DNA of 64,000 nt from Gaiellales bacterium (GCA_045806525.1 JBJMJD010000105.1:2680-66679), one strand, 5' to 3'. Positions 26,410-62,630 are shown, counted from the first letter of the stretch. Numbers and translations are program-made. Notes: generated from the sequence alone by a model not told the origin.

Positions 26410-26418
26410 ACGCGACCA

Positions 26419-26434: not shown

Positions 26435-26467
26435 AGCGACCGTTCGGAGCTCTAACTGCGGATCGGC

Positions 26468-30808: not shown

Positions 30809-30813
30809 GCCCT

Positions 30814-36413: not shown

Positions 36414-36415
36414 GT

Positions 36416-37576: not shown

Positions 37577-37593
37577 GAGGGTGCAGCTTACCG

Positions 37594-41137: not shown

Positions 41138-41145
41138 TGGCGGTC

Positions 41146-44722: not shown

Positions 44723-44822
44723 GGCCGGCCTGCCGGGTGTCGAGGGGAACGGTCGGCGCTGGCGGCGCCGGCCGCGCCCCCAGCCCGCCCCCGGCGAGCC
44801 GCGGCTGATCGGCTACCTGTAC

Positions 44823-46474: not shown

Positions 46475-46475
46475 C

Positions 46476-47564
46476 GTGCCGGGCATCGCCTTCGACCAGG
46501 TCGTGAAGCGGTTCGGTGAGGTGACCGCCGTGCGCGAGCTGACCCTCGACGTGGCCGACGGCGAGTTCGTGGTGCTGGTCGGCCCGTCCGGGTGCGGCAA
46601 GACGACGGCGCTGAGGACGCTGGCCGGGTTGGAGGCGGTCAGCTCGGGCCGGATCCTGATCGGTGATCGCGAGGTGCAGCAGCTGCCGCCTCGCCAGCGC
46701 GACGTGGCGATGGTGTTCCAGGACTATGCGCTGTACCCGCAGATGAGCGTCTACCGCAACCTCGCGTTCGGGCTGCAGACCCGCAAGGTGCCGCGCGAGC
46801 AGGTGCGGCGACTGGTGACCGAGGCGGCGGAGAGGCTGGGCCTGAGCGAACTGCTCGACCGCAAGCCGCGGCAGCTGTCCGGCGGCCAGCGCCAGCGGGT
46901 GGCGCTGGGCCGGGCGCTGGTGCGAAAGCCGCAGGCGTTCCTGATGGACGAGCCGCTGTCCAACCTCGACGCCAAGCTGCGGGTGGACATGCGGGCCGAG
47001 ATCAAGGCGCTGCAGCGCGAGACCGAGGTGACGACGGTGTTCGTCACCCACGACCAGGTCGAGGCGATGACGATGGGAGACCGGATCGCCGTGATGCGTG
47101 ACGGCGTGCTCGAGCAGGTGGGGAGGCCTGAGGTGGTCTACAACCTGCCGGCCAACGTGTTCGTCGCCGGGTTCATCGGCAGCCCGGCGATGACGTTCGG
47201 GCGCGTCGGCGTGGAGCGCGCGGGCGGGGCGCTGCGGTTGAACCACCCGGCGCTTTGCCTGGAGTGCGCGCCGGTCGCCGAGGCGGGGGACGAGGCGGTC
47301 GTCGGCATCCGTCCCGAGCACATGCGCCCGTGGCAGGACGGTGCCGGTCTGGCCGGGCCGTTCCAGGGCACGATCGAGTCGGTCGAGGCGCTGGGCCGCG
47401 AGACGTTCCTGGGCGTGCGTGTGGCCGACGACCTGCGGCTGGTGGTGCGCGCCGACGGGGCTCCCGACCACCGGCTGGGTGACCGGTTCCAGTTCGGCGT
47501 CGAGCGCGGCCGGCTTCACCTGTTCGACACGGGCTCCCAGAGGGCGATCGCGCACGGCGTTTGA
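46476..47564 (+). CDS. ABC sugar transporter ATP-binding protein (MalK/MsiK-like)
   Basis: GPSGCGKTT, LSGGQRQRVALGRA and FLMDEPLSNLDA. Confidence 0.9.
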   Translation: MPGIAFDQVVKRFGEVTAVRELTLDVADGEFVVLVGPSGCGKTTALRTLAGLEAVSSGRILIGDREVQQLPPRQRDVAMVFQDYALYPQMSVYRNLAFGLQTRKVPREQVRRLVTEAAERLGLSELLDRKPRQLSGGQRQRVALGRALVRKPQAFLMDEPLSNLDAKLRVDMRAEIKALQRETEVTTVFVTHDQVEAMTMGDRIAVMRDGVLEQVGRPEVVYNLPANVFVAGFIGSPAMTFGRVGVERAGGALRLNHPALCLECAPVAEAGDEAVVGIRPEHMRPWQDGAGLAGPFQGTIESVEALGRETFLGVRVADDLRLVVRADGAPDHRLGDRFQFGVERGRLHLFDTGSQRAIAHGV

Positions 47565-47570
47565 CGGATT

Positions 47571-47603
47571 CTTATGAGCGTGTTGCGACACGCGCAAAAT
47601 AAG
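47571..47603 (+). terminator. stem-loop after the ABC ATPase gene (possible terminator or processing hairpin; no U-tract)
   Basis: Inner stem GCGTGT (47578-47583) / ACACGC (47588-47593) with loop TGCG. Outer stem CTTAT (47571-47575) / ATAAG (47599-47603). It starts 7 nt after the stop codon and ends 20 nt before the next start. Confidence 0.25.
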
Positions 47604-47622
47604 GTCTGTACTCTTCGCCGCT

Positions 47623-48162
47623 GTGAAACGAGCTCTGCTCACGATCGTGGCCGCGTCACTGCTGTCACCTCTCACTGCGCGCGCCGCCGCTACCGGCCCC
47701 GCCTTCCACCGTCACCATCCGGCTGCGGGCCGGCCGCGGACGCTGGGCGCGCGTGCGGCCAGGTTCTCGCTGCGCTTCCGCGGCACGCCGTACGTGTGGG
47801 CGGGCACGACGCCGCGCGGCTTCGACTGCTCGGGCTTCACGCGGTTCGTCTACGCCCACATGGGCATCGAGCTGCCGCACTCGAGCTACGCCCAGTGGGC
47901 GATGGGACGTCACGTCGGCCGCCACGCGCTGCGCCCCGGCGACCTGGTCTTCTTCGACGGGCTCGGCCACGTCGGCCTGTGGATCGGCCGCGGCCGGTTC
48001 ATCCACGCTCCCCAGACCGGCGACGTGGTGTCGGTGGCCAGCCTCAGCCACGGCTGGTACGCCGCGGCCTACAGCGGTGCCGTACGGCTGCGCGGCACCC
48101 AGCGCAGCCACCGGGCGCGGCGACACCAGCAGCACGCCGTGCACCTGGTCGCGCACGCCTGA
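47623..48162 (+). CDS. NlpC/P60 (C40) cell-wall peptidase, secreted
   Basis: Signal peptide VKRALLTIVAASLLSPLTARA. Catalytic Cys context PRGFDCSGFTRFVY, and HVGLWIG...FIHAP. Confidence 0.85.
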   Translation: MKRALLTIVAASLLSPLTARAAATGPAFHRHHPAAGRPRTLGARAARFSLRFRGTPYVWAGTTPRGFDCSGFTRFVYAHMGIELPHSSYAQWAMGRHVGRHALRPGDLVFFDGLGHVGLWIGRGRFIHAPQTGDVVSVASLSHGWYAAAYSGAVRLRGTQRSHRARRHQQHAVHLVAHA

Positions 48163-48190
48163 GCCGGCGCGCCCGGCATGATTCATTCCA

Positions 48191-48466
48191 GTGGCGAAGC
48201 TCGACCAGGCGCGATGGTGGACGATCCGGCCGGTGCGAAGCCGTAAGCCGGCCACGTATCGCTGTCCGCTCTGCGGGCTTCGGTTGCACGCGATGAGCGA
48301 TCACATGCTGATCGCCCCGGAGGGCGACGGCGACCGGCGCCGCCATGCCCATCGCGAGTGCGTGCTGGCCGCGCGTGAGGCCGGCCGGCTGCCGCTGGAG
48401 AGCGAGTGGCGGGCCACCCAGCCACGGCCGCCATCGCTCTGGCGACGACTGACGGGCGGGGCGTGA
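48191..48466 (+). CDS. small conserved zinc-ribbon-like protein (91 aa), function unknown
   Basis: CPLCG...H(x3)C putative metal site (YRCPLCGLRLHAMSDHMLIAPEGDGDRRRHAHRECV). I recall near-identical small proteins across actinobacteria, but this is unverified. Confidence 0.5.
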   Translation: MAKLDQARWWTIRPVRSRKPATYRCPLCGLRLHAMSDHMLIAPEGDGDRRRHAHRECVLAAREAGRLPLESEWRATQPRPPSLWRRLTGGA

Positions 48467-48486
48467 TCCTCTAGGGTGTCGCGCTG

Positions 48487-51462
48487 ATGCTGCGCCACCC
48501 CGGCTACACCCGCGAGCGCATCGCCCAGGTCGGGGACCGGATCCGCGCGGTGATCCACGCCGACGCCGTCGCCCCCGAGCGGCTGGCGGTGGCCGGGCCG
48601 GTCGACCGCATCGAGCCGGCCGAGGCCGAGCTGCTCGAGTACCGCGACTGCCGGCTCGGTGAGACGTTTGGGCCGCTCTGGGCGACCTTCTGGTTCAAGG
48701 TCGAGGCGACCGTGCCGGAGCCGTGGCAGGGGGAGCGCGTCGATCTGCTCTGGGTCAGCCACAGCGAGGCCACCTTGTGGGATGGCGGCCGGGCGCTCCA
48801 GGGCCTGAACACCAGCCCCGACGGCGCCCGCGTGGACGCCATGGTGCGCGAGACCGCGGCCGCGGGGGAGCGGCTCGACCTGCGCGTCGAGCTCGCATGT
48901 AACGGCCTCTTCGGTGAGCTGTCGCGGCCGTACGCCAGCCGCGAGCCGGTGGTGCTCGACCGCTGCCAGATCGCCCGTTTCGACGCGCGAGCCTGGCGGC
49001 TGCATCACGACTTCGACGTCCTGCGCCGGCTCGAGGCGGACCACGCTGAGGGGCTCGACCCGACCTGGGGAGGCGAGCTGCTGCACGAGCTGAACCGCGT
49101 CTGCAACGTCTGGTCGGAGCATGATCCGGCCACGTGGGACGAGGCCGAGGGGATCCTTGCGCCCCTGCTGGAGCGCCGTAACGCCACCGTCACGCACGAG
49201 CTGTCGGCGATCGGCCACGCGCACCTCGACACCGCCTGGCTATGGCCGCTGGCGGAGAGCTACCGCAAGGCGGTGCGCAGCTTCAGCTCGCAGGTCGCGT
49301 ACATGGACCGCTATCCCGAGTTCCGGTTTGCGTGCTCGCAGGCCCAGCACTACGACTGGATCCGGCGCCGTGACCCAGAGCTGTACGGACGCATCTGCGC
49401 TCGCGTCGACTCCGGCCAGTGGCTGCCGGTTGGCGGCACCTGGGTGGAGCCAGACTGCAACCTGCCGTCGGGCGAGTCGCTCGTGCGCCAGTTCCTGCAC
49501 GGCCAGCGCTACTTCGAGCGCGAGTTCGGCCGCCGCTGTGCCGAGTTCTGGAACCCGGATGTGTTCGGCTACAACGGCCAGCTGCCCCAGATCATGCGCG
49601 GCGCCGGGATCGGCCGGTTCCTCACCCAGAAACTGTCCTGGAACCGGTTCAACCCGCCCGCACACCACACGTTCACCTGGCAGGGCATCGACGGGTCGCA
49701 GGTGCTCGCGCACTTCCCGCCGGCCGACACCTACAACGCCACGGCCGAGGTGGCCGAGCTGCGCCGCAGCGCTCGCGACTACAAGGACCACGACCGGTCG
49801 CACCGCAGCCTGCTGGTGTTCGGCCACGGCGACGGCGGCGGTGGGCCGACGCCCGACATGCTGGAGACGCTGCGCCGGGCTCGCGACCTGCAGGGCCTTC
49901 CCCGCACCACCATCACCACCAGCGATGCGTTCTTCACCGCCCTGGAGGCCGACGCCCGCGACCTGCCGGCGATCGTGGGCGAGCTCTACTTCGAGTACCA
50001 CCGGGGCACCTACACATCGCAGGCCGCTGTCAAATTAGGCAACGCACGCGGCGAGCGGGCGCTGCACGATGCCGAGTTCCTGGCCGCGGCCGCCATGCGC
50101 GAGGCCGGTGCGGACTACCCCTCCGAGCGGCTGGACGAGCTCTGGAAGCTGCTGCTGTTGAACCAGTTCCACGACATCCTGCCTGGGTCCAGCATCGGCC
50201 TGGTCTATGAGGATGCCGCCCGCGACCACGCCGTCGTGCTGGCGGGCGCTGAGGCGCTGGCGGTTGGCGCGCTGGCGGCGATCGCCGGCGGCGGCCCGTC
50301 GGCGCCGGTGAACACGATGGGAGCGGCCCGCGCCGAGGTGGCGGAGCGGCCGGACGGTGAGCTGGCCTGGGTGGAGGCGCCCAGCTACGGCATCGGCAGC
50401 GCGGCGGAGGCCGGGCCAACCGTCGCACGTGCGACCGAGCGGGGCGACCTCGTGGTGCTCGAGAACGGCCTGCTGCGGGCTGAGCTCGCCCGCGACGGAC
50501 GCCTCGCCTCGCTGGTGCACCTGGCATCTGATCGCGAGGCGCTGGAGCAGCCGGGGAACGTCCTCCAGCTCTACGACGACCGGCCCACGGCCCACGAAGC
50601 CTGGGACGTCGACCCCTTCCACCTCGAGACGGTTCGGGACGCCGGACCGGCCGAGTCCTGCGCCGTCACCCAGCCTGGCGGTCTGCGGGCGCAGGTGGAG
50701 CTGCGATACCGGATCGGGTCGGCCAGCACGTTGCGCCAGCTGGTGCGCCTGGACGCCGGTGCCTCCCGGCTCGAGTTCCACTGCGAGGTCGACTGGCGGG
50801 AGCGCCGGACGATGCTGAAGGTGCTGTTCCCGGTCGCCGTGCACGGCCCCTCCGCCACCTACCAGATGCAGTTCGGCCATGCCGAGCGGCCCACCCACTT
50901 CTCCACCAGCCACGACCTGGCTCGCTACGAGGTGCCCGGGCACCGCTTCGCCGATCTATCCGAGCACGGCTTCGGCGTGGCGCTCCTGACCGACTGCAAG
51001 TACGGCTACTCGACGCTGGGCGGCGAGATGCGGATCAGCCTGCTGCGCTCGACCTCCGTGCCCGACCCCGACGCCGACGCGGGCAACCACGCGTTCGCCT
51101 ATGCGGTGCTGCCGCATCCGGGCGGCTGGCGGGAGGCGGGAGTGGTGGCCGAGGCGGCCCGGTTCGCGACCCCGCTGCGGTGGGCTTCGGTCGCCGGTGA
51201 GCCGCGGTCCTGGCTGTCGGTCGACGACCCCAACCTGGTGCTCGACACGGTCAAGCGGGCCGAGGACTCCGACGCCCTGCTGCTCCGGCTGTACGAGGCC
51301 CACGGCGCGCGGGGCAGGGCGCGCCTGCGCGTCGGCTGGCCGGTCACCGAAGCCGTGTCGTGCAACCTGCTCGAGGATGCCGGTGAGGCGCTGCCGCTGG
51401 ACGGCGGCGTGATCGAGCTCGGCTACCGCCCCCACCAGATCATCAGCCTGCTCGTCAGCTGA
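48487..51462 (+). CDS. glycoside hydrolase family 38 alpha-mannosidase
   Basis: 991 aa. IGHAHLDTAWLWP metal-binding motif, with size and domain order typical of cytosolic bacterial GH38 enzymes. Confidence 0.9.
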   Translation: MLRHPGYTRERIAQVGDRIRAVIHADAVAPERLAVAGPVDRIEPAEAELLEYRDCRLGETFGPLWATFWFKVEATVPEPWQGERVDLLWVSHSEATLWDGGRALQGLNTSPDGARVDAMVRETAAAGERLDLRVELACNGLFGELSRPYASREPVVLDRCQIARFDARAWRLHHDFDVLRRLEADHAEGLDPTWGGELLHELNRVCNVWSEHDPATWDEAEGILAPLLERRNATVTHELSAIGHAHLDTAWLWPLAESYRKAVRSFSSQVAYMDRYPEFRFACSQAQHYDWIRRRDPELYGRICARVDSGQWLPVGGTWVEPDCNLPSGESLVRQFLHGQRYFEREFGRRCAEFWNPDVFGYNGQLPQIMRGAGIGRFLTQKLSWNRFNPPAHHTFTWQGIDGSQVLAHFPPADTYNATAEVAELRRSARDYKDHDRSHRSLLVFGHGDGGGGPTPDMLETLRRARDLQGLPRTTITTSDAFFTALEADARDLPAIVGELYFEYHRGTYTSQAAVKLGNARGERALHDAEFLAAAAMREAGADYPSERLDELWKLLLLNQFHDILPGSSIGLVYEDAARDHAVVLAGAEALAVGALAAIAGGGPSAPVNTMGAARAEVAERPDGELAWVEAPSYGIGSAAEAGPTVARATERGDLVVLENGLLRAELARDGRLASLVHLASDREALEQPGNVLQLYDDRPTAHEAWDVDPFHLETVRDAGPAESCAVTQPGGLRAQVELRYRIGSASTLRQLVRLDAGASRLEFHCEVDWRERRTMLKVLFPVAVHGPSATYQMQFGHAERPTHFSTSHDLARYEVPGHRFADLSEHGFGVALLTDCKYGYSTLGGEMRISLLRSTSVPDPDADAGNHAFAYAVLPHPGGWREAGVVAEAARFATPLRWASVAGEPRSWLSVDDPNLVLDTVKRAEDSDALLLRLYEAHGARGRARLRVGWPVTEAVSCNLLEDAGEALPLDGGVIELGYRPHQIISLLVS

Positions 51463-52573
51463 GGGCGGCGCCGCTGTCCGGGTCGAAGAAGTAGAGGCGG
51501 TCGACGTCGACGCTCACCCGCGTCGCGCCGCCCTCTGTCAGCGACGCGCGCCGCTCCAGCCGCGCGGTCAGCAGCGTGTCCGCCGCCATGCCCGCGGGGG
51601 CGAGGTAGGCGACCAGCTCCGAGCCCAGCGATTCCAGCCGCGACACCGTCACGTCGATCTGGCCGCCGCCGTCGCCTTCGGTGGCGAAGTCCTCGGGCCG
51701 GATGCCCAGCGTGACCGGCTTTCCCAGATAGCCGCGCAGCGCCGGTCGCTGCTCCAGCAGCGTCGGCGCCGCCAGCCGCGCGCCGCCCACGCTGACGGCG
51801 CAGCCGTCACCCTCTGGCTCCAGCCCGGCCGGCAGCAGGTTCATCGAGGGCGAGCCGATGAACCCGGCCACGAACGCGTTCACCGGCCGGTCGTAGACCT
51901 GGTCGGGCGTGCCCAGCTGCTGCAGCAGCCCGTCGCGCAGGATCGCCACGCGGTCGCCCATCGTCATCGCCTCGGTCTGGTCGTGGGTGACGTACAGGGT
52001 AGGAGCGGCGATCCGGCGCTGCACGCGGATGATCTCGCCGCGCATCTCCACCCGCAGCTTGGCGTCCAGGTTGGAGAGCGGCTCGTCCATCAGGAACGCC
52101 GAGGGCTCACGCACGATCGCGCGGCCCATCGCCACCCGCTGGCGCTGGCCGCCCGAGAGCTGCCGCGGCTTGCGGTTGAGCAGCTCGGTCAGGCCCAGCA
52201 TCACCGCCGCCTCGTCGACCCGCCGGCGGATCTCGTCCTTCGGCATCCGCGCCATCTTGAGGCCGAACGCCATGTTGTTGCGCACCGTCATGTGCGCGTA
52301 GAGCGCGTAGTTCTGAAACACCATCGCGATGTCGCGGTCGCGCGGCGGCAGCCTGGTCACCACCCGGTCGTTGATCCGGATCTGGCCCTCGGTGACCGGC
52401 TCGAGGCCGGCCACCATCCGCAGGGCGGTGGTCTTGCCGCATCCGGACGGGCCGACCAGCACCAGGAACTCCCCCGGCTGCACCTCCAGGCTCAGGTTGT
52501 CGACCGCGACAACGCCGCCGGGGAAGTGCTTGGTGACCGACTCCAGCGTGATCGTGCCGGTGGCGGCGGTCAT
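51455..52573 (-). CDS. ABC sugar transporter ATP-binding protein (MalK/MsiK-like)
   Basis: ATG at 52573. GPSGCGKTT, LSGGQRQRVAMGRA and FLMDEPLSNLDA. Its 3' end overlaps the GH38 3' end by 8 nt. Confidence 0.9.
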   Translation of the reverse strand: MTAATGTITLESVTKHFPGGVVAVDNLSLEVQPGEFLVLVGPSGCGKTTALRMVAGLEPVTEGQIRINDRVVTRLPPRDRDIAMVFQNYALYAHMTVRNNMAFGLKMARMPKDEIRRRVDEAAVMLGLTELLNRKPRQLSGGQRQRVAMGRAIVREPSAFLMDEPLSNLDAKLRVEMRGEIIRVQRRIAAPTLYVTHDQTEAMTMGDRVAILRDGLLQQLGTPDQVYDRPVNAFVAGFIGSPSMNLLPAGLEPEGDGCAVSVGGARLAAPTLLEQRPALRGYLGKPVTLGIRPEDFATEGDGGGQIDVTVSRLESLGSELVAYLAPAGMAADTLLTARLERRASLTEGGATRVSVDVDRLYFFDPDSGAALS

Positions 52574-53430
52574 CACGAGCCCGCCAGCATGCCGGTGATG
52601 CGCTTGTTCAGGATCAGCGCCAGCAGCGCCGGCGGGATCAGCGCCAGCACGCCGCCCGCGGCCAGGATCGGGTAGTTGGTCGTGTACTTTCCGACGTACT
52701 CGGTGATCAGCACCGTCACCGGTTTCGCGTTCTGGGTCTGGGTGAGCAGCAGCGGGATCAGGAACTCGCCCCAGACCGAGAGCGCCAGGATCGCCGCCAC
52801 CGCCGCGATGCCGGAGCTCATCTGCGGGATCACCACCCGCACGAATGCCTGCCAGCGCCGGCAGCCGTCGATCAGCGCCGCCTCCTCCGGCTCGGCCGGC
52901 ATCTCTCGCACCTGCGTGTACAGCAACCAGGTGGCGAGCGGCGTCAGCGTGGCCACGAACACCAGCACCAGGCCCTTCTTGGTGTCGATCAGGTGGGCGT
53001 TCGCCATCAGCTTGAACAGCGCGATCACGACCACGAAGATGGGTACCACCATCGTGCCGACCAGCACCGCCAGCAGGAACCCGCCGAACCGGAATCGCAG
53101 CCGGCCGAAGGCATAGGCAGCCATCGTGGCCACCACCAGCGTCAGCCCTGCGGACAGCAGCGCCAGCTCGGCGCTGACCCACATCGACTGCACGAACTCG
53201 CCCTCCTGGGTGACGGTGCCGCCTGAGTGCTGGCCGGTGGTGCCGCCGATCAGCGCGCGGTAGGCCTGGGTGGTGGGATTGTGCGGCAGCCAGTGGCTGG
53301 GCCCCTCGTTCACCTCGCGCTGGGTGGACAGGCTGGTGGTGACGCCCAGCACGATCGGGGCCAGCGACCAGACCACGATCAGCGTCACGGCCAGCGCCTT
53401 CAGCACGCGCATGCCCAGCGTCGTGGTCAT
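52573..53430 (-). CDS. carbohydrate ABC transporter permease (MalG-like)
   Basis: 285 aa. EEAALIDGCRRWQAFVRVVIPQM. Confidence 0.9.
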   Translation of the reverse strand: MTTTLGMRVLKALAVTLIVVWSLAPIVLGVTTSLSTQREVNEGPSHWLPHNPTTQAYRALIGGTTGQHSGGTVTQEGEFVQSMWVSAELALLSAGLTLVVATMAAYAFGRLRFRFGGFLLAVLVGTMVVPIFVVVIALFKLMANAHLIDTKKGLVLVFVATLTPLATWLLYTQVREMPAEPEEAALIDGCRRWQAFVRVVIPQMSSGIAAVAAILALSVWGEFLIPLLLTQTQNAKPVTVLITEYVGKYTTNYPILAAGGVLALIPPALLALILNKRITGMLAGS

Positions 53431-54329
53431 ACGGTCGACCTCCGCAGCGCCAGCGCGTAGAACCCGCCGAGGACGGCGGTGACCGCGGCCAGCACGAACG
53501 CGAGGGCGGTGCCGTGCGCGAAGTCGGCCTCGACGAACGTGGTGTTGTAGACCTGGATCAGGATCGAGCGCGTGTTCAGGGCAGTGCCGTTCAGCACGTA
53601 GATCTCATCGAAGATGCTGATCGCAAGCAGCGTGCCGACGGTCAGCGCGATCGCCATGGACGGTCGCAGCAGGGGCAGGGTGATGTAACGGAACTGGCGC
53701 CACGGGCCGGCTCCGTCGACGGCGGAGGCGCTGTAGACCTCGTCGGGCACGCTCTGCAGCCCGGCCAGGAAGATCAGGCTGATCAGCGGCAGCACCCCCC
53801 ACACGTGCACGAGCGTGATGTAGACGATCGCGCCGCGGCCGCTGGCCAGCCACACGTGCGGCTGGTGGATGATGTGCAGATGCAGCAGCACGCTGTTCAG
53901 GAGGCCGTTGTCCGGGTCGAACACCCTGCGCCAGAGCACGCCCGAGACCACCGACGGAAGCGCCCAGGGTAGGACCAGCACGGCCAGCACGAAGCCGCGC
54001 CCGCGGAACACCCTGTGCAGGGTGACGGCCACGAAGATGCCCAGCACCAGCTCCAGCGAGACCGCCAGCAGCACGTACTCCACCGTGTGGCGCATCGCGT
54101 CGCGCGAGGTCGGGTCGTTCAGCACGTCGCGGTAGTTGCGCGTGCCGACGTAGCCCGGCAGCTCGCCGAACAGGATGCCGCCTGACTGGATGCTCTGCTG
54201 GAAGCCCTTGACGAGCGGATAGAGGATCAGCCCGCCGACGGCGACCATCGCGGGGACGACCAGGATCCACCCAAGGATCTGGGTCTCGCGGGCGCTGCGA
54301 TCGCCCTCCCGGTTCCAGCGGCCCGGCAC
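53427..54329 (-). CDS. carbohydrate ABC transporter permease (MalF-like)
   Basis: 300 aa. YSASAVDGAGPWRQFRYITLPLL. Confidence 0.9.
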   Translation of the reverse strand: MPGRWNREGDRSARETQILGWILVVPAMVAVGGLILYPLVKGFQQSIQSGGILFGELPGYVGTRNYRDVLNDPTSRDAMRHTVEYVLLAVSLELVLGIFVAVTLHRVFRGRGFVLAVLVLPWALPSVVSGVLWRRVFDPDNGLLNSVLLHLHIIHQPHVWLASGRGAIVYITLVHVWGVLPLISLIFLAGLQSVPDEVYSASAVDGAGPWRQFRYITLPLLRPSMAIALTVGTLLAISIFDEIYVLNGTALNTRSILIQVYNTTFVEADFAHGTALAFVLAAVTAVLGGFYALALRRSTV

Positions 54330-55618
54330 TACTGGGTGCGCGCGGACGCCTTGTCAGCGAGCTGGGTGAGCGCGTCCTGCACGCTCATCTGGCCCTTGAC
54401 AGCCGCGTTGGCCAGCCCCTGCGCGTCGGCGCTGAACTGGGAGTACCAGATTGGCGCCCCGGCCTGGAACAGCGGGCCGACGTGGGCCAGCTCCTGGTTG
54501 AGGACGTCGCCACCCTGCAGCTGGCCCGTCGCCACCATCTCCTTGATGGTCGACGTCCCGCAGGGCAGGCTGCCCTGGGTCTTGTAGATCGCGATCGCGT
54601 TCTTGGGCTGCTCCCACCAGTTGATGAAGGCCGCGGCGGCAGCCTTGTGCTTGGCCGTGACCGGGATCGAGAGCCCCTCCGGCAGGCCGAACGAGGCGCC
54701 CGGGCCGTCGACGCCAGGCACCAGGCCCAGGGCCGCCTTGCCGACGATGCTGGACTGGCTGGGGTCGTTGGCGGTGGGCAGGTTGCCGGGGCCGGTCGCG
54801 AACAGGATCGCGCTCTGGCCCGCCAGGAAGTCGTTCAGGGCGACGTCGTCGTTCAACGCCACCGAGCCCGGGGACACCCAGCCGTTCTTGACCGCGTCCG
54901 CCTCCCACTGCAGCGCCTTGTAGCCCGCCGAATCGGGTGTCTGGAAGACAGGCTTCAGGTTCTGGTCGAACAGCTGCCCACCCATCGCCAGCGTCAGCAG
55001 GTACCACGGGGTGATGCCGCCCTCGGTGGCCGCCATCGGGATCTGCAGCGGGTACTTGACGCCCGATGCCTGCAGCTTCTGGACGTCCGTCGCCAGCTCG
55101 TCGAACGTGGCCGGGAACGAGGTGATGCCCGCCTTGGCGAACATCTGCTTGTTGTACATGGACAGCCGGAAGTCGTTCGAGTAGCAGGCCGCGTAGGTCT
55201 TGCCGCCGGACACGAACGCGGCGTCGGTGCTCTTGAGGTCGGCCAGCGTCTTCGCCGGCAGCAGGTTGTCGAGGGGCTCGACCCAGCCCGCGCCGGCGAA
55301 CTGGCCGGTGAACGACCAGTCGAACTCGGCCACGTCGGCGATGTAGGTCTTGGCCGTGTTCGCGACGATCAGCTTGTTGTGGGTGGCATCCCATCCGGTG
55401 CGGACGTAGTTGACCTTGACGCCCGTCTCCTTGGTGAACTGGTTGAGCAGCGACTGGGGCATCACGTAGGGCACGAGCACGGTGATCGTCTGGCCGCTGA
55501 TCGACTCGCTCGAGGCGCTGGAACCGCTCGAGCTGGAGCTGCCGCCGCACGACGCCGCGAACAGCGCGGCCGCGATCGCCATCGCCGAGGTCAGTGTCCA
55601 CCGCAGTCGTCGGTTCAC
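54329..55618 (-). CDS. ABC sugar-binding lipoprotein (family 1)
   Basis: GTG at 55618 preceded by AGGGAGA. Lipobox AAALFAASCGGSSSSS. The track ORF start at 55714 is an extension. Confidence 0.85.
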   Translation of the reverse strand: MNRRLRWTLTSAMAIAAALFAASCGGSSSSSGSSASSESISGQTITVLVPYVMPQSLLNQFTKETGVKVNYVRTGWDATHNKLIVANTAKTYIADVAEFDWSFTGQFAGAGWVEPLDNLLPAKTLADLKSTDAAFVSGGKTYAACYSNDFRLSMYNKQMFAKAGITSFPATFDELATDVQKLQASGVKYPLQIPMAATEGGITPWYLLTLAMGGQLFDQNLKPVFQTPDSAGYKALQWEADAVKNGWVSPGSVALNDDVALNDFLAGQSAILFATGPGNLPTANDPSQSSIVGKAALGLVPGVDGPGASFGLPEGLSIPVTAKHKAAAAAFINWWEQPKNAIAIYKTQGSLPCGTSTIKEMVATGQLQGGDVLNQELAHVGPLFQAGAPIWYSQFSADAQGLANAAVKGQMSVQDALTQLADKASARTQ

Positions 55619-55683
55619 AACGTCTCCCTCGTTGCAGGTTGGGCGCTCATCGGAGCGAGCGGAGCGCCATACTACGAGACCGT

Positions 55684-57603
55684 ATGGGCGGATTACAAGA
55701 GCGCGCTGTGACACACCCGCTGGATCCGCTGGATGCGGCCGAGATCGAATCGGCGGCCGGCGCGTGCCGCAGCCGCGACCTGGGTGAGGACAGCCGCTTC
55801 GTCACGATCGCGCTGGCGGAGCCCGAAAAGCGGGTGCTGCTGGAGTGGGAACAGGGTGGCGCCGAGCCCCACAGGGAAGCGGAGGTCGTGATCCTCGACC
55901 GTTCCGCGCGTGAGACGGTGGAGGCGACCGTGGCGGTGGGCGCGGGTGAGGTCACCCGCTGGGTGCGGCGTGCTGACATCCAGCCGATGGCGGTCGTGTC
56001 AGAGCTGGTCGAGGCGGAGCAGGCGGTGCTGCTCGACCCGGACTTCCAGGCAGCGATGGCGCGGCGCGGCGTCACCGACATGGGCACCGTGCAGGTGGAC
56101 GCGTGGCCCGCCGGCCACTTCGGCCCCGACGAGGAGACGGGCCAGCGGCTGTGCCGGGCCGTGGCCTTCCTGAAGCCGGCGCCGGGTGACAGCGAGTGGG
56201 CGCATCCCGTCGACGGGGTGATCGTGCTGCTCGACCTGAACACGCTCGAGGTGCTGCGGGTGGACGACCACGGGCTGGTGCCGATCCCGCCCGAGAGCGG
56301 CAACTTCGACGTCGCCGCCGGGGCGCCGCTGCGCGACGACATCGCGCCGCTTCTGATCACGCAGCCCCACGGCCCCGGCTTCACCCTGGAGGGACACCTG
56401 CTGCGCTGGCAGCGCTGGCAGCTGCACGTCGGGTTCACCCCGCGCGAGGGACTGGTGCTGAACCGCGTGGGCTACGAGGACGGCGGCCGACTGCGGCCGA
56501 TCCTGTACCGGGCCTCGCTCTCGGAGATGGTGGTGCCCTACGGCGATCCCGGTCCCATGCACTACTTCAAGAACGCCTTCGACGGCGGCGAGAACGGCGT
56601 GGGCCTGGCGGCGTCGCCGCTCACGCGCGGCTGCGACTGCCTGGGCGAGATCGCCTACCTGGACGCCGTCGTGTCCGACCCATCCGGCGCGCCGGTGCTG
56701 ATACCGAACGCGATCTGCATCCACGAGGAGGACGTGGGCGTGCTGTGGCGGCACATCGAGTGGCGCGACGGCTCGGGCGAGGTGCGGCGCTCGCGGCGGC
56801 TGGTGGTTTCGTCGTTCTCGGCGATCGGCAACTACGACTACGGGTTCTTCTGGTACCTGTACCAGGACGGCACGATCGAGTTCGAGGTGAAGCTGACCGG
56901 GGTGCTCTCGACCGGCGCCGTGGCCCCTGGCGTCCAGCCCGAGCACGGCACCCTTGTGGCGCCGGGGCTGAACGCGATGGTGCACCAGCACTTCTTCAAC
57001 ATGCGGCTCGACCTGGACGTCGACGGGCAGCGAAACGGTGTCGACGAGGTCTGGACGGAGTCGCTTCCGCCGGGCGCCGGAAACCCCCACGGCAACGGCT
57101 TCCGGCCCCGGCGGCAGCGCCTGGCCACCGAGCACGCCGCCCGGCGCACCGTCGACACGCGCTCGGCTCGGTGGTGGGAGATCGTCAATCCGGAGCGGCT
57201 GCATCGCCTGGGGCAGCCGGTCGCCTACCGGTTGGTGCCTGGAGAGACAACGTTCCCGTTCGCGCAGCCCGACGCTCCCGTCAGCAAGCGCGCCGGCTTC
57301 ATCCGCCATCACCTGTGGGTGACGCCGTACCGCCGCGACGAGCGCTACGCGGCCGGGGAGTACCCCAACCTGCACGCGGGCGGTGCCGGCCTGCCGGAGT
57401 GGACGAGCGGCGACCGGCCGATCGACGGCGAGGACATCGTGGTCTGGTATACGTTCGGCCACCACCACGTTCCCCGGCCCGAGGACTGGCCGGTGATGCC
57501 GGTGGCGACGGCGGGGTTCAAGCTGAAGCCGGTCGGGTTCTTCGAGCGGAACCCGGCGCTCGACGTCCCGCCGTCCCAGCCGGACTCTGACCACCACTGC
57601 TGA
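55684..57603 (+). CDS. copper-containing primary-amine oxidase (topaquinone enzyme)
   Basis: NYDYGFFWYLYQDG carries the TPQ precursor Tyr in N-Y-D/E-Y. Copper histidines are in VHQHFF and FGHHHVPRPEDWPVMP. No signal peptide is seen. Alternative GTG start at 55711. Confidence 0.9.
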   Translation: MGGLQERAVTHPLDPLDAAEIESAAGACRSRDLGEDSRFVTIALAEPEKRVLLEWEQGGAEPHREAEVVILDRSARETVEATVAVGAGEVTRWVRRADIQPMAVVSELVEAEQAVLLDPDFQAAMARRGVTDMGTVQVDAWPAGHFGPDEETGQRLCRAVAFLKPAPGDSEWAHPVDGVIVLLDLNTLEVLRVDDHGLVPIPPESGNFDVAAGAPLRDDIAPLLITQPHGPGFTLEGHLLRWQRWQLHVGFTPREGLVLNRVGYEDGGRLRPILYRASLSEMVVPYGDPGPMHYFKNAFDGGENGVGLAASPLTRGCDCLGEIAYLDAVVSDPSGAPVLIPNAICIHEEDVGVLWRHIEWRDGSGEVRRSRRLVVSSFSAIGNYDYGFFWYLYQDGTIEFEVKLTGVLSTGAVAPGVQPEHGTLVAPGLNAMVHQHFFNMRLDLDVDGQRNGVDEVWTESLPPGAGNPHGNGFRPRRQRLATEHAARRTVDTRSARWWEIVNPERLHRLGQPVAYRLVPGETTFPFAQPDAPVSKRAGFIRHHLWVTPYRRDERYAAGEYPNLHAGGAGLPEWTSGDRPIDGEDIVVWYTFGHHHVPRPEDWPVMPVATAGFKLKPVGFFERNPALDVPPSQPDSDHHC

Positions 57604-57604
57604 G

Positions 57605-58324
57605 ATGGGAGCCGCCGTGAGCACACTCGAGGGGCGCGTGGCGCTGGTGACCGGAGCCAGCAGCGGCATCGGCACGGCAACGGCGCAGGCGCTGGCCGCC
57701 GGCGGGGCGAGGCTGGCGCTGGCATCACGCCGCGCCGACGACCTCGGCATCGACGGCGCCCTGGCACGACCCTGCGACGTGCGCCGGCCCGAGCAGATCG
57801 AGGCGCTGGTGGCGGAGGCGGTCGAGCGCTTCGGCGGGATCGACATCGTGGTCGCGAACGCGGGGGTTGGTGCCTACGGCGACTTCCTCGAGCTCGAACC
57901 GGAGCACCTCGAGGAGATGATCGACACCAACGTCAAGGGGCTGCTGTACACGGTGCGGGCCGCCCTGCCCCACCTGCTGGGCTCAGACAGCGCCGACCTC
58001 GTGGTGGTCGCGTCGGTGGCGGGGCAGCGCGGGCCGGAGGGCGAGGCCGTGTACTCGGCGTCGAAGTTCGCCCAGGTCGGGTTCATGCGCTCGCTCGACC
58101 ACGAGCTGTACCGTCGCGGCGTGCGCTGCTCCACGATCGCGCCGGGCGGGGTGCACACCGAGTTCGCCATGGGCCGCGGCCGCACGCCGCAGGATCCCGA
58201 CCTGGCGGACATGATGCGGCCGCAAGAGGTCGCCGACGCCGTGCTGCATGCGGTCACGCGGCCGCGCACGTACCGCGTGCTGGAGGCGACGATCCTGCCC
58301 ATGAGCGACGACTCGATGAACTGA
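57605..58324 (+). CDS. short-chain dehydrogenase/reductase (classical SDR)
   Basis: TGASSGIG cofactor motif and the YSASK catalytic pair. It starts 1 nt after the amine oxidase stop. Confidence 0.9.
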   Translation: MGAAVSTLEGRVALVTGASSGIGTATAQALAAGGARLALASRRADDLGIDGALARPCDVRRPEQIEALVAEAVERFGGIDIVVANAGVGAYGDFLELEPEHLEEMIDTNVKGLLYTVRAALPHLLGSDSADLVVVASVAGQRGPEGEAVYSASKFAQVGFMRSLDHELYRRGVRCSTIAPGGVHTEFAMGRGRTPQDPDLADMMRPQEVADAVLHAVTRPRTYRVLEATILPMSDDSMN

Positions 58325-58346
58325 CCCCAGCGAAAGGACCCGGCAG

Positions 58347-59678
58347 ATGGCAACCAAGGTCACGATCATCGGCGGAGGCAGCAGCAGCTTCGTCCCGCTG
58401 CTGGTGCGGCGGCTGATGCAGTCGCCCGTCCTGGGCTCCTCGCAGGTGACGCTGATGGACGTCGACGAGAGCCGGCTGTCGGTCATGCAGTCGCTGGCGG
58501 ACAAGCTGATCGCCAACGAGAACAGCGAGCTGCGGGTCACCAGCACCACCGACCAGCGCGAGTCGCTGGCCGGCGCCGACTTCGTGATCGCCGCCATCTC
58601 GGTCGGCGGCATGGACGCCTGGGCCAACGACCTCGAGATCCCCGGCCGCCACGGCATCGTCATGCACGTCGGCGACTCGGTCGGGCCGGGCGGGATCATG
58701 CGCGCCTTCCGAAACGCGCCGGTGCTGGCCGACGTGGCCCGCAACGCCGCCGAGGTGGCGCCGGACGCGTGGGTGTTCAACTACACCAACCCGGCCCCGA
58801 TCGAGGCGCTGGCGATGCGGGCGGCGGCGCCGCAGGTTCGCTCCTACGCGCTCTGCTCCTGCACCGGACATCCCAGCAGCCGGGAGTGGCTGGCCCACCA
58901 GGCAGGCGTCGAGCCCGACCGGATCGCGATGCCGCCGGTGGTGGCGGGGATCAACCACTGCGCATCGATTCAGCAGCTGCGGCTGACCGACGGCACCGAC
59001 GCGATGCCGCTGGTGCGCGAGCGCGCAACCGAGCCGATCGTGAAGTGGGTGCTCGACCGCTACGGGGTGCTGCCCTACTGCTGGTCGCACTGGACCGAGT
59101 TCTTCCCGCAGATGCAGCGGCTGGAGGCGCCCTACGCCGGCACCGCCCAGGGGGTGTCCATGCGCTACGGCATCACCACCCACGACATGGCGTATGAGCG
59201 GTCGCGCGTGCGCGGCCTCGAGCAGCTGGCCGAGACCTGGACCGCGGAGGGCGCCGCACCGGTGACGCTGGCCGACCTGCCGAAGGGAGACGAGGACGAG
59301 GGCATCGAGGTGATCGACCTGATCGAGGCGATCGTCGACAACGGCAACATCACGCTGGTCGTGAACGCGCCCAACCAGGGCACGATTCCCAACCTGCCTG
59401 ACGAGGCGATCGTCGAGGTGAACGCGCAGATCAACGCCTACGGCATCCGGCCGATCCAGACCGGCCCCCTGCCCGAGACGCTGGCGGCGCACCTGCGCCG
59501 CTTCTTCGACTTCCAGCAGCAGGTGGTGCTGGCGGCGCTGAGCGGCGATCGGGAGCATGCGCTGCACGCCTTCATGCTCGACCCCAACACCGCATCCCGG
59601 CTTGATCTCGACCAGACCCGCACCATGATGGACGAGATGCTGGAGGCGAACGCACAGCACCTGCCGCTGTTTGCCTGA
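58347..59678 (+). CDS. glycoside hydrolase family 4, AglA/alpha-glycosidase-like
   Basis: KVTIIGGGSSSF Rossmann, VTLMDVDESRL (compare T. maritima AglA VTLMDIDEERL, from memory), a CSC/GINH metal region, and a GAAAGGA Shine-Dalgarno. Confidence 0.85.
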   Translation: MATKVTIIGGGSSSFVPLLVRRLMQSPVLGSSQVTLMDVDESRLSVMQSLADKLIANENSELRVTSTTDQRESLAGADFVIAAISVGGMDAWANDLEIPGRHGIVMHVGDSVGPGGIMRAFRNAPVLADVARNAAEVAPDAWVFNYTNPAPIEALAMRAAAPQVRSYALCSCTGHPSSREWLAHQAGVEPDRIAMPPVVAGINHCASIQQLRLTDGTDAMPLVRERATEPIVKWVLDRYGVLPYCWSHWTEFFPQMQRLEAPYAGTAQGVSMRYGITTHDMAYERSRVRGLEQLAETWTAEGAAPVTLADLPKGDEDEGIEVIDLIEAIVDNGNITLVVNAPNQGTIPNLPDEAIVEVNAQINAYGIRPIQTGPLPETLAAHLRRFFDFQQQVVLAALSGDREHALHAFMLDPNTASRLDLDQTRTMMDEMLEANAQHLPLFA

Positions 59679-59736: not shown

Positions 59737-60879
59737 ATGGCCGGGCGACCTCACGGCTCCACCGGCACCGCCCCAGCGACTGGCGGCGACGTCGTCGCGC
59801 CCGGGGGCGGCAAGGCTGAGCAAGCATCGTCCGGGGACGTCGGCCGGCTCTACCGGGCGCTGGTCGAGCACGCCCGCGAGGCGGTCACGATCGTGGATGC
59901 GAGCGGCGTCGTCGTCTACCACAACCCCTCGATGGGCCGCGTGGTGGGGCGTCCGCCGGAGTGGTTCGAGGGCCGCTCGCCGCTCGAGCTGATGCCGCCC
60001 GAGGACGCCGCCCGCGCCCTGCGCGTGCTCCAGCAGCTGGCCGGCAAGCCGGGTGCCCAGCTACCGGGCGAGTTCCGGCTGCGGCACAGCGACGGATCGT
60101 GGCGCCGGGTCGAGGGCGTCGCCACGAACCTGTTGCACGATCCGGCCGTGCGCGGCATCGTGCTCAACTACCGCGACGTCACCGACGAGCGCAAGCACTC
60201 ACAGACGCTGCGCGACATCGAGCGGCGCCGGCAATCGCTGCTCGAGGAGATCATCAACGCCGAGAGCGAGCAGCGGTCGCGGATCGCGGGCGAGCTGCAC
60301 GACGACACGATCCAGGTGATGATCGCGTCGCTGTTCGAGCTGGACCGCAGCGACCGGCACCTGCGAAGCGGCGACGTGGAGGCGGCGCGTGGTGCCATCG
60401 CGAAGGCCCGCGCGACGCTGGCGGAAGCCACGGAGCGCACCCGCCGGCTCACCTTCGATCTGCGGCCGCAGCTGCTCGAGGCGGCCGGTCTGGGGCCGGC
60501 GATCCGTGACCTGGCCGACGCGCTGCACCGCGACACCGGGGCCGAGGTGACCGTGCGCACGCGGCTCGGCCGCTACCCGGTCGACATCGAGACGCTCGCC
60601 TACCGCACGATCCGGGAGGCGCTGATCAACGTGCGGCGGCACGCTCGCGCCGCCAACGTGGCGATCAGCGTCTCCGAGCGCCGGGGTGGATTGCACGCCA
60701 CCGTGCGCGACGACGGGCGCGGGTTTGCCGGCCAGCGGCGGCGGCCACGCACGTCCAAGAGCATGGGTATCGCCACAGCCCGCGAGCGCGTCCGCGCCCA
60801 TGGCGGCAGCTTCGACGTGACCTCCGCCCCCGGCGAGGGCACCACCGTGGAGTTCTCGCTGCCGCTGCCATCGGGGTAG
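59737..60879 (+). CDS. soluble PAS-domain sensor histidine kinase (HisKA_3 / NarL-partner type)
   Basis: A PAS region, the H-box SRIAGELHDDTIQ, and an HATPase_c tail (GGSFDVTSAPGEGTTVEFSLP). No TM segments. No response regulator is adjacent. Confidence 0.85.
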   Translation: MAGRPHGSTGTAPATGGDVVAPGGGKAEQASSGDVGRLYRALVEHAREAVTIVDASGVVVYHNPSMGRVVGRPPEWFEGRSPLELMPPEDAARALRVLQQLAGKPGAQLPGEFRLRHSDGSWRRVEGVATNLLHDPAVRGIVLNYRDVTDERKHSQTLRDIERRRQSLLEEIINAESEQRSRIAGELHDDTIQVMIASLFELDRSDRHLRSGDVEAARGAIAKARATLAEATERTRRLTFDLRPQLLEAAGLGPAIRDLADALHRDTGAEVTVRTRLGRYPVDIETLAYRTIREALINVRRHARAANVAISVSERRGGLHATVRDDGRGFAGQRRRPRTSKSMGIATARERVRAHGGSFDVTSAPGEGTTVEFSLPLPSG

Positions 60880-60935
60880 TGGGACGCCACCATCAGGCGC
60901 AGTCTCCAGGCGCATCAGTCCGCGGATTGTGCTAA

Positions 60936-62630
60936 ATGAGTCGGGTGGATCAGCCGACCGATTCTGCGCTGCTGAGGGAGGTGCGCCACTGGCTCGCGCT
61001 GGCGGTCGAGGATCTGGGCTTTGGCGTGGCGGTCGCCGAGGCCGGGTCCGAGCGGATCCTTTTCGCCAACCGGTACGCGAAGCAGGTCTGGCAGCGCCTG
61101 GCGCAGAGCGACGGCGTGGCAGAAGGCTACCGCGGGTTTACCCGTGACGGGCGGCCGTACAGTCCGGAGGAGTGGCCGCTGCGACGTGCGCTGAGGCTGG
61201 GCGAGACGGTGAGCCACGAGGAGATCTCGGTGGAGTTCGCCTCCGGTACCAGGGGAGTGCTGGCATTGAGCGCCGGCCCGATCCGGAACGACCACGATCA
61301 ACTGGTCGGCGCGGTGGTGACGATGTATGACCTGACCGATCATCGCCGAGCCGAGGAGACGCTGGCGTTCATGGCAGAGGCGAGCGCGGTTCTGACCGAA
61401 TCCGAACGCGACTATGAGCATATGTTGCGGCGACTGGCGCATCTTGCCGTTCCGCGGTTGGCGGACTGGTGTGCGATCGACCTCTGGGAGAACGGAATGA
61501 TCCGAAACGTCGGGGTTGCACACGTCGATCCGGCCAAGATCGAGCTTGCACACGAGCTCCAAAAGCGGTTCCCGCCGGATCCTGATAGCGCGCGAGGCGT
61601 GGCGAACGTGCTTCGTACCGGTCGTTCGGAGCTGACGTCGGAGATCCCGGATGCGTTGATCGACGAAGCCACTCCCGACCCGGATGTGCGACAGATTCTT
61701 CGTGACCTCGGGCTCCATTCGGCCATGGTGGCGCCGCTCTCGGCTCACGGTGAGACGCTCGGCGCCCTGACGTTGATTTCCGCTGAACAGCGGAGGACAT
61801 ACACCGCGGACGACCTCATCCTCGCCGAGGACCTGGGGCACCGAGCGGCGCTTTCGATCAGCAACGCGCGCCTGTTTCGCGAGCAGATCGAGATCAACAG
61901 CGCGCTGCAGCAGAGCCTGATTCCCGACACGCTGCCCAGCCTGGACGGCCTCGAGGTCGGTGCCGTCTACATGCCGGCCGGCGAGGGCAGCCAGGTCGGA
62001 GGAGACTTCTACGATGCGTGGAAGCTCGAGAACGGCGCGTTCGGTGTCGCGATCGGCGATGTTCAGGGCAAGGGACCGCGGGCGGCGGCGTTGACCAGCC
62101 TGGCACGACACACCATGCGCGCGGCCGCCCTCCACGCCGCCTCTCCGGCGGACGTGCTTCGGCTTCTCAACGACGCCGCCATTCGAAGCGACTTCAAGCA
62201 GTTCTGCACCGCCATCTACCTGACGTTGACACCAGCCGCCGACGGATTTACCACGACCGTGGCTGTAGCAGGGCACATGCCGGGAATGATCCGCCGTGCC
62301 AACGGGATGATCGACCGAGCGGGCCGCCCCGGGACGCTGTTGGGTATGTACGAGGACGTCAGGATCATCGATCACACCCTTCACCTGTATCCCGGCGACG
62401 CGCTGCTGCTGTTCACCGACGGCGTGACCGAGCGACGCGACGGTCCCAGGCAGTTCGGTGAGGGACGGCTGCGCGCGATCTTCAGCGCTGCGGCAGATCA
62501 GGAGGCGGATGCCGCTGCGCGGGCGGTCGCCGATGCGGTCGGTGCATTCTCTTCCTCACCGGCCCAGGACGACATAGCGATTCTGGTGATCAGAATCCTG
62601 GAAACCGATCGTGTCGAGCGCGTCGCATGA
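60936..62630 (+). CDS. PAS-GAF-PP2C (SpoIIE/RsbU-type) serine phosphatase
   Basis: 564 aa. PP2C motifs GGDFYD, GDVQGKG and FTDGVTE, with PAS and GAF-like N-terminal halves. Confidence 0.85.
   Translation: MSRVDQPTDSALLREVRHWLALAVEDLGFGVAVAEAGSERILFANRYAKQVWQRLAQSDGVAEGYRGFTRDGRPYSPEEWPLRRALRLGETVSHEEISVEFASGTRGVLALSAGPIRNDHDQLVGAVVTMYDLTDHRRAEETLAFMAEASAVLTESERDYEHMLRRLAHLAVPRLADWCAIDLWENGMIRNVGVAHVDPAKIELAHELQKRFPPDPDSARGVANVLRTGRSELTSEIPDALIDEATPDPDVRQILRDLGLHSAMVAPLSAHGETLGALTLISAEQRRTYTADDLILAEDLGHRAALSISNARLFREQIEINSALQQSLIPDTLPSLDGLEVGAVYMPAGEGSQVGGDFYDAWKLENGAFGVAIGDVQGKGPRAAALTSLARHTMRAAALHAASPADVLRLLNDAAIRSDFKQFCTAIYLTLTPAADGFTTTVAVAGHMPGMIRRANGMIDRAGRPGTLLGMYEDVRIIDHTLHLYPGDALLLFTDGVTERRDGPRQFGEGRLRAIFSAAADQEADAAARAVADAVGAFSSSPAQDDIAILVIRILETDRVERVA

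Follow-up and report, generated by a model that had tools for sequence, protein, structure and literature searches.

Three adjacent genes from a Gaiellales bacterium (GCA_045806525.1 JBJMJD010000105.1:2680-66679), encoding a copper amine oxidase (CuAO), a short-chain dehydrogenase/reductase (SDR), and a glycosidase of family GH4, appear to form a unit that has itself been retained through evolution. They lie in a stretch of 64,000 nucleotides with a G + C content of approximately 70%, called the window below, and are transcribed divergently from a sugar ABC importer of the CUT1 type. From the sequence comparisons described here we propose, with a probability of roughly 45%, that the unit serves a clade-specific catabolism of an imported carbohydrate bearing a free primary amine.

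Conservation of the CuAO-SDR-GH4 unit

To collect relatives, the oxidase was run against one genome per species of the GTDB set; the loci of the best 80 of 554 matches were then searched with the proteins of the window. Among these best 80 of 554 matches, oxidases at least 62% identical to that of the window occurred in at least 45 relatives, giving 46 loci when the window is counted. All 45 related loci (L001-L043, L047, and L061) are metagenome-assembled genomes (MAGs) of Gaiellales, Solirubrobacterales, Thermoleophilales, and unclassified Thermoleophilia or Actinomycetota; cultured Gaiella, Solirubrobacter, Conexibacter, and Thermoleophilum were not found among the best 80 of 554 matches. 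Several of the loci from long-read MAGs contain genes split by frameshifts (e.g., L002, L005, L034, L035, and L085).

A note made earlier on this DNA had left its proposal to depend on whether the three-gene adjacency recurs in related genomes, and it does. CuAO, SDR, and GH4 are contiguous in 38 of the 43 species-level loci that have at least 2.2 kb of sequence downstream, at oxidase identities down to 62%, whereas SDR, GH4, and a substrate-binding protein (SBP) or other CUT1 gene were found beside none of the outgroup oxidases (0 of 35 loci; at most 56% identical; cyanobacteria, Dehalococcoidia, Bacilli, and others). The neighbors of the outgroup oxidases are instead amino-acid permeases (APC), penicillin amidase, and ammonium transporters (Amt). 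In the Dehalococcoidia loci L064, L065, L069, L071, and L072, CuAO is directly followed by a penicillin-amidase-family gene of approximately 780 aa. Adjacency of the triad is kept across three orders of Thermoleophilia, while the first gene 3' of GH4 belongs to 24 families in 33 loci. Because the flanks vary widely and the triad is kept, it appears to be the unit itself that is retained.

The five exceptions are also informative. CuAO is followed directly by GH4 in L022, L039, and L042, where an SDR paralogue stands after the permeases, and L021 and L040 are without GH4, yet keep the importer, SDR, CuAO, SIS, ROK, PfkB, and DeoR genes. These rearranged loci (L021, L022, L039/L081, L040, and L042) consist of DeoR, an SBP2-permease-permease-SDR2 series, an ATPase gene on the other strand, an aldehyde dehydrogenase (ALDH) gene in some, the oxidase, and GH4 in some. 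Their SDR2 is 46% identical to the SDR of the window, and their SBP2 is 37% identical (E 6e-73) to the importer's binding protein, SBP-C, while the two other CUT1 SBPs of the window show no match to SBP-C or 23% identity only. Thus, although the genes are ordered in two ways, the four functions and the SBP subfamily are the same in both, which we regard as the strongest argument for a shared substrate. The pairing of the oxidase with a sugar importer, pointed out before from the window, therefore extends to rearranged loci.

These observations also bear on an explanation without any shared substrate, in which oxidase and SDR would scavenge nitrogen from a simple amine, GH4 and the importer would use an ordinary alpha-galactoside or alpha-glucoside, and the genes would have been inherited jointly in Thermoleophilia. 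Conservation is limited to one class, as this explanation would have it, but the unit persists where its flanks do not, and its junctions are tight. By its score, the oxidase is a canonical primary-amine oxidase (see below), and yet no amine or amino-acid transporter is encoded nearby, unlike in the outgroup loci. Finally, the window is a sugar-utilization island, in which three CUT1 importers accompany an inositol cluster, so that a sugar gene beside an oxidase is likely by chance; against this stand the two gene orders with the same four functions and SBP subfamily. Taken together, we consider separate substrates unlikely.

Organization of the unit and of the divergent intergenic region

In the window, CuAO (55684-57603), SDR (57605-58324), and GH4 (58347-59678) are genuine open reading frames (ORFs) with intact catalytic motifs, all on the + strand. 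The CuAO/SDR junction reads TGA-G-ATG, a gap of 1 nt, and the 22-nt gap between SDR and GH4 holds a ribosome-binding-like GAAAGGA; coordinates and junctions agree with those given in the earlier note. In the 38 contiguous loci, the median gap is 1 nt between CuAO and SDR, which often overlap by 4 nt, and 22 nt between SDR and GH4. Because the gaps are short or overlapping in all these loci, the previously proposed single CuAO-SDR-GH4 transcript is likely.

The SBP start (55618) and the oxidase ATG (55684) are separated by 65 bp and diverge, as had been described. This intergenic region (55619-55683) contains a -10-like CATACT at 55668-55673, 10 nt before the oxidase ATG. The element gcCATACTACGa (window 55660-55686) ends approximately 10 nt 5' of the oxidase start and is kept in approximately 25 loci, which suggests a -10 box and a leader that would be very short or absent. 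A consensus scan of 51-61.2 kb for sigma-70 promoters and terminators found nothing useful. A DeoR operator common to the SIS/DeoR (6434-6497) and SBP/oxidase intergenic regions was considered and rejected: a search by eye yielded only dissimilar short inverted repeats, and the conserved upstream element is a -10-like box rather than an operator.

Downstream of GH4, the region 59737-62630 encodes a PAS-HisKA_3 histidine kinase and a PAS-GAF-SpoIIE (PP2C) protein. Matches to the histidine kinase gene were confined to L001, L002, L017, and L061, which are 95%-identical relatives, and this gene probably lies outside the unit.

The copper amine oxidase

The oxidase (639 aa) carries the Cu_amine_oxid domain (Pfam PF01179, E 1.8e-156, 521.6 bits) together with the N2 and N3 domains, and it scored 895.1 bits against the primary-amine oxidase model PRK11504 (NF008559) of NCBIfam, whose cutoff is 651. 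In an alignment with AGAO, the phenylethylamine oxidase of Arthrobacter globiformis (46% identity), the equivalents of Tyr284, Asp298, His431, His433, and His592 and the NYDY motif were all present and were invariant across the clade, in line with the NYDY motif and three copper-histidine contexts that had been recognized before. Domain architecture, score, NYDY, the Asp base, and three copper ligands thus all place the protein, as predicted from its sequence, in the copper/topaquinone family. No hydrophobic or twin-arginine signal was found at its N-terminus, which fits the cytosolic location previously thought probable.

Bacterial copper amine oxidases are known for the use of simple aryl- and alkylamines. 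The enzyme resembles AGAO and the oxidase of E. coli tynA-feaB in fold, domain order, NYDY, catalytic Asp, and the three copper-binding His, and it resembles AGAO also in its cytosolic location. It differs from tynA-feaB in its partners: where that pathway has an aldehyde dehydrogenase and a regulator of the AraC type, the unit has an SDR, GH4, and a sugar importer. Between positions 48 and 64 kb of the window, neither an ALDH nor an AraC-type gene was found, so that the locus is not an arylamine unit of the tynA/feaB type. The earlier emphasis on a missing ALDH holds for the window but not for its relatives, several of which, in Solirubrobacterales, have ALDH genes inside the cluster (L019/L082, L020, L022, L039/L081, L042, L033, and L085).

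Compared with AGAO, the substrate channel carries the changes Y296A, Y302N, Y307A/S, F407S, and T378A. The gate change Y296A was rejected as a marker of the clade, since outgroup oxidases have it too. The other four (Y302N, Y307A/S, F407S, and T378A) are clade-specific and make the residues smaller and more polar than in AGAO and the outgroup, which is consistent with, but no proof of, a bulkier hydrophilic substrate. Aminoglycosides inhibit ECAO with half-maximal inhibitory concentrations (IC50) of 0.8-3.8 mM (PMC4640556), and amino-sugar amines are therefore able to enter the active site of a bacterial CuAO.

The SDR

The SDR (239 aa; + strand; Pfam adh_short, E 9.5e-51) has the motifs TGASSGIG, NAG, and YSASK, the first and last of which had already been noted, and with its Ser-Tyr-Lys residues it is a classical SDR. 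Its best match in the PDB was clavaldehyde dehydrogenase (CAD; 2jah, 137 bits). Basic residues of the kind diagnostic for NADP(H) follow beta-2 throughout the clade, either as SRR or as SRS accompanied by TGASRGIG; that is, where the second Arg after beta-2 is lost in the clade alignment, an Arg appears in the Gly motif. The protein is probably an NADPH-dependent aldehyde reductase, a prediction in which the cofactor is read from a motif rule and we infer the direction. A redox step by the SDR after the oxidase, as suggested in the earlier note, fits this assignment, because the nearest solved relative is an NADPH-dependent reductase of aldehyde to alcohol.

In the clavulanic acid pathway, an amine is converted to an aldehyde, which is then reduced to an alcohol with NADPH. 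CAD is thus similar both as the closest solved SDR relative and in the chemical logic from amine to alcohol. It differs in being biosynthetic rather than catabolic and in following a deamination without a copper oxidase, and the likeness is one of family level only.

The GH4 glycosidase

The third gene encodes a GH4 protein of 443 aa (+ strand) with the Glyco_hydro_4 (E 8e-47) and Glyco_hydro_4C (E 2e-38) domains. The motifs GGGSS, NYTNP, ALCSC (xLCSC), and GINH (G[IL]NH), among them those for NAD and the metal ligands, are conserved, and the protein is accordingly an NAD+/Mn2+ glycosidase of this family. Its previous description as AglA-like was not borne out and is rejected on score, since it reached 124.6 bits against the AglA equivalog of NCBIfam with a cutoff of 650. 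The best model was the MelA-type alpha-galactosidase subfamily (PRK15076) with 299.7 bits, which is also under the cutoff (486). With MelA and Thermotoga AglA the protein shares both GH4 domains, GGGSS, and the Cys/His metal-ligand motifs, and it differs from annotated MelA/AglA-type genes in its identity of approximately 31-34% and in lying below both curated cutoffs; matches on annotated plasmids, at most 34% identical, are labeled generically MelA/AglA. Among 1.84 billion representative proteins, none outside the clade was more than 45% identical, and only two full-length clusters were at least 57% identical, one of which adjoins a CuAO (L085). Further relatives were 45%, 41%, and 40% identical. 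Judged by these identities, the GH4 is a compact, distinct subfamily restricted to the clade. Because the importer is not of the phosphotransferase type, the GH4 substrate would be non-phosphorylated, a further likeness to MelA and AglA.

The surroundings of the nearest GH4 relatives outside the clade are suggestive, since they include SIS/NagB-like genes, kinases, DeoR, or N-methyltransferase genes, and they speak for the proposed amine-bearing carbohydrate. L083 has a CUT1 importer, GH4, a 2-hydroxyacid dehydrogenase, a NagB-like protein (a faint match), and PFK, with MTTB genes nearby; L086 has GH4, GntR, two MTTB, GH4, Gfo/Idh/MocA, and URO-D; L087 has URO-D, GH4, ROK, and FGGY; L089 has SIS, PfkB, GH4, DeoR, and PfkB; and L090 has SIS, ROK, and DeoR, followed by an importer and GH4. 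Methyltransferase genes of the MTTB (trimethylamine-methyltransferase-like) and URO-D families thus adjoin GH4 in L083, L086, and L087, at 38-45% GH4 identity, suggesting that GH4 enzymes of this branch may in general act on N-substituted glycosides.

Since the MTTB and URO-D methyltransferases act on methylated amines, their proximity to the nearest GH4 relatives hints at nitrogen-containing aglycones, and the amine might accordingly sit on the aglycone. GH4 would then act first, freeing an amino alcohol or aminoalkyl compound (e.g., of the ethanolamine type), and the oxidase and subsequently SDR or ALDH would follow. The ALDH genes inside the cluster of several relatives would suit such a route, as in classical amine catabolism, and actinobacterial copper oxidases acting on ethanolamine are known. 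But an enlarged and more polar channel is needless for a small amine, and the loci without GH4 (L021 and L040) keep importer, SDR, CuAO, sugar kinases, and SIS, which suggests a sugar amine; the translational coupling of oxidase and SDR upstream of GH4 indicates no order. We regard an amine on the aglycone as rather unlikely.

The CUT1 importer

The importer is encoded on the - strand by four genes whose stop and start codons overlap and contains every CUT1 component, namely a lipoprotein SBP, two permeases, and a MalK-type ATPase. SBP-C (54329-55618) matches Pfam SBP_bac_1 and has the lipobox LFAASC. Permease 1 (53427-54329), whose start overlaps the SBP stop, and permease 2 (52573-53430), which overlaps permease 1 by 4 nt, both match BPD_transp_1. 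The MalK/UgpC-type ATPase (51455-52573; ABC_tran, OB_MalK, and TOBE_2), whose ATG at 52573 overlaps the permease stop, scored 451.6 bits against the UgpC subfamily model of NCBIfam (cutoff 432). The best PDB relatives of SBP-C are the small-sugar and polyol binders 5ci5, 5ysb, 4rya, and 1eu8.

The wider gene system

Several further genes, for GH38, SIS, DeoR, and PfkB proteins, also belong to a wider system. In the window, a GH38 alpha-mannosidase with five Pfam GH38 domains (48487-51462, + strand) is the last gene of an importer operon (42231-51462). GH38 adjoins the importer ATPase gene in most Gaiellales loci and directly follows GH4 on the same strand in L029, L031, L034, L036, L037, and L038 (Solirubrobacterales and Thermoleophilales), so it is a probable accessory enzyme of the unit. 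In Solirubrobacterales, genes for SIS, DeoR, a ribokinase-like PfkB, and a second PfkB are inserted between SBP and oxidase (L023, L024, L026, L028, L037, and L047). The second PfkB is of the 1-PFK/tagatose-6-phosphate-kinase type (258.8 bits on TIGR03168 for the L024 copy, cutoff 216.4). The SIS protein matches the GlmS, GlmD, and NagB-II models, and among solved structures the glucosamine-6-phosphate deaminases of archaea and Thermotoga come closest to it. The PfkB kinase gave partial matches to tagatose kinase, fructokinase, and fructoselysine 6-kinase and no PDB match at E 1e-20 or better.

An aga/tagatose-phosphate-like cluster at window positions 1-7268 contains genes homologous to all four of the Solirubrobacterales insert (SIS, DeoR, and the two PfkB), here 50 kb from the oxidase. 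It comprises a DeoC/LacD aldolase (1-516), a PfkB kinase (approximately 543-1424), a PfkB of the 1-PFK/tagatose-6-phosphate-kinase type (1421-2287), two permeases (2603-4302, - strand), SBP_A (4299-5591, - strand), a GlmD/GlmS-like SIS protein (5570-6433, - strand), and DeoR (6498-7268, + strand), and its CUT1 importer is without an ATPase gene. This cluster is a possible downstream pathway of the oxidase unit, the link within the genome being drawn from the homology.

A related module without CuAO or SDR was found on pRL1 of Rhizobium leguminosarum (L091, CP090116.1 433780-458925), with the order GH4-DeoR-SBP-permease-permease-SIS-GatZ/KbaZ-like-UgpC; it is apparently uncharacterized and resides in a culturable host. 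Homologues of SBP-C are encoded on R. leguminosarum chromids (43% identity). The wider system resembles this module and the aga/tagatose-phosphate (AgaR/AgaS/AgaZ) pathways in DeoR, a GlmS/GlmD-like SIS protein, a PfkB ketose-phosphate kinase, a LacD/DeoC aldolase, and the SBP-C homologue (43%), and differs in that those have neither amine oxidase nor SDR. The Rhizobium module thus marks the importer-GH4-SIS-DeoR core as an older module of the aga/tagatose-phosphate type, and on this comparison the oxidase and SDR joined it specifically in Thermoleophilia.

The GatZ/KbaZ-like gene, the partial PfkB matches given above, and the resemblance of CUT1, SIS, and PfkB to the frl operon of B. subtilis would all suit a substrate that is a 1-amino-1-deoxy-ketose, such as a fructosamine or tagatosamine, in free form or as a glycoside. 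From it, the oxidase would form an osone and the SDR a ketose, and PfkB, SIS, and aldolase would finish the route in parallel to the kinase/deglycase pathway. The nearest solved SBP, 5ci5, a tagatose complex, points the same way. But the SIS protein matches GlmS, GlmD, and NagB-II, and no FrlB model was matched at E below 1e-5; the PfkB kinase matches the FrlD model only in part (77.7 bits, cutoff 247), and in the window neither the SIS nor the PfkB gene is adjacent to the oxidase. Moreover, free Amadori compounds derived from ammonia are not known as major nutrients, and GH4 and GH38 would have no clear role. We consider an amino-ketose quite improbable.

Several other loci of the window were recorded. 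The + strand operon that ends with GH38 (region 40320-51462) encodes a PfkB kinase, SBP_B, two permeases, its own MalK-type ATPase, a 240-aa protein (47574-48296) without a Pfam or NCBIfam match, and the GH38 enzyme, and a GntR/UTRA regulator gene lies divergently at 40320-41183. Just upstream of the mannosidase and oxidase clusters is a myo-inositol cluster (24493-38496) with IolB (KduI/IolB), an IolC-like PfkB, an IolE-like TIM-barrel protein, a LacI regulator, a CUT1 SBP, an IolD-like thiamine pyrophosphate enzyme, a DUF2090/DeoC aldolase, a zinc alcohol dehydrogenase, and a Gfo/Idh/MocA dehydrogenase. An LPG_synthase_TM protein and a sedolisin-type (pro-kumamolisin) protease are encoded within 7277-10333 / 21131-23578, and a long ORF with a translation of at most 820 aa, whose 5' part overlaps a - strand ORF (7277-8248), combines a holin-like domain of four transmembrane segments with a phosphodiesterase domain.

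A proposed route for an amine-bearing carbohydrate

For the catabolism of an amine-bearing carbohydrate that we favor, we infer a shared substrate, the position of its amine, and the following order of steps. The SBP lipoprotein and the CUT1 transporter would import the amine-bearing carbohydrate, and the cytosolic oxidase would convert its C-NH2, most likely a CH2-NH2 group, to a carbonyl with release of H2O2 and of NH3, which would serve as a nitrogen source. The translationally coupled NADPH-type SDR would reduce the aldehyde to an alcohol, for a net exchange of NH2 by OH; in some relatives, ALDH may oxidize the aldehyde to an acid. GH4 would subsequently cleave the now ordinary alpha-glycoside by NAD+/Mn2+ redox elimination, and GH38 would remove mannosyl units where present. 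The sugars would finally enter glycolysis via PfkB/ROK kinases, the GlmD-like SIS deaminase/isomerase, and the ketose-phosphate kinase, whose genes are in the cluster in Solirubrobacterales and elsewhere in the genome studied here.

The retention of sugar kinases and SIS in loci without GH4 suggests that the amine-bearing compound is itself a sugar and not a non-sugar aglycone. The known topaquinone oxidases require an amine on a primary carbon and do not oxidize the secondary-carbon amine of 2-amino sugars. This need points to 6-amino-6-deoxy sugars, 1-amino-1-deoxy-ketoses, and aminoalkyl aglycones. Among concrete candidates, head groups of glycosylphosphatidylinositol (GPI) or glycosylinositol phosphorylceramide (GIPC), the glucosamine-inositol of mycothiol, and oligomers of galactosaminogalactan or Pel were set aside because none explains every gene; likewise, neamine-type aminoglycosides and hydroxylysine glycosides each explain some of the genes but none explains all.

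A chemical parallel exists in the biosynthesis of neomycin and kanamycin, where a 6'-OH is converted via 6'-CHO to 6'-NH2 by an FAD oxidase and an aminotransferase. Common to both is the interconversion of CH2OH and CH2NH2 on a glycoside via an aldehyde. The proposed route differs in using a copper oxidase and an SDR and in running in the opposite direction, and the parallel does not imply an aminoglycoside as substrate. It is doubtful, in our estimate, that the oxidase goes as far as being the first topaquinone enzyme specialized on carbohydrate amines, which together with the SDR would turn an amino-deoxy residue into one of an ordinary sugar so that GH4 can cleave it. Such a specialist could possibly act on a hexoside like those of neamine and kanamycin, 6-amino-6-deoxy or 2,6-diamino in form, or possibly on the ring C2 amine of alpha-galactosamine or alpha-glucosamine residues, which would be unprecedented.

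Several points weigh against the route. The conservation is confined to one class, and hence shared ancestry contributes to it, and every one of the 45 related loci is a MAG. ALDH genes in some relatives suit ordinary amine catabolism. Y296A is common to outgroup oxidases without sugar genes, so that the channel argument rests on few positions. The GlmD-like SIS protein suggests 2-amino sugars, in which a secondary carbon bears the amine, and the steps could also run in reverse order. In addition, a widespread natural glycoside combining CH2NH2 and mannose is not readily named.

Implications

All parts of the system come from known families, and their combination is undescribed as far as our literature search shows: in the full-text literature we met with no account in which a copper amine oxidase is coupled with a GH4 enzyme or with a sugar importer, in agreement with the earlier note, which knew of no pathway of this composition. 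The evidence for the unit is comparative. Through a conserved, translationally coupled link with an NAD-dependent glycosidase and with a sugar importer, the CuAOs would be extended to carbohydrate metabolism. If the proposed route is correct, it would represent a new means of removing nitrogen from amino sugars or amino-glycosides ahead of their hydrolysis, would assign a function to a distinct GH4 subfamily, and could yield enzymes with which to modify aminoglycoside-like molecules. Amino sugars make up a large pool of nitrogen in soil, and Gaiellales and Solirubrobacterales are abundant, almost unstudied soil bacteria. Should the oxidase indeed act on carbohydrate amines, the unit would provide a new, deamination-first route for the catabolism of amino-glycosides or amino-polysaccharides in uncultured soil Thermoleophilia.

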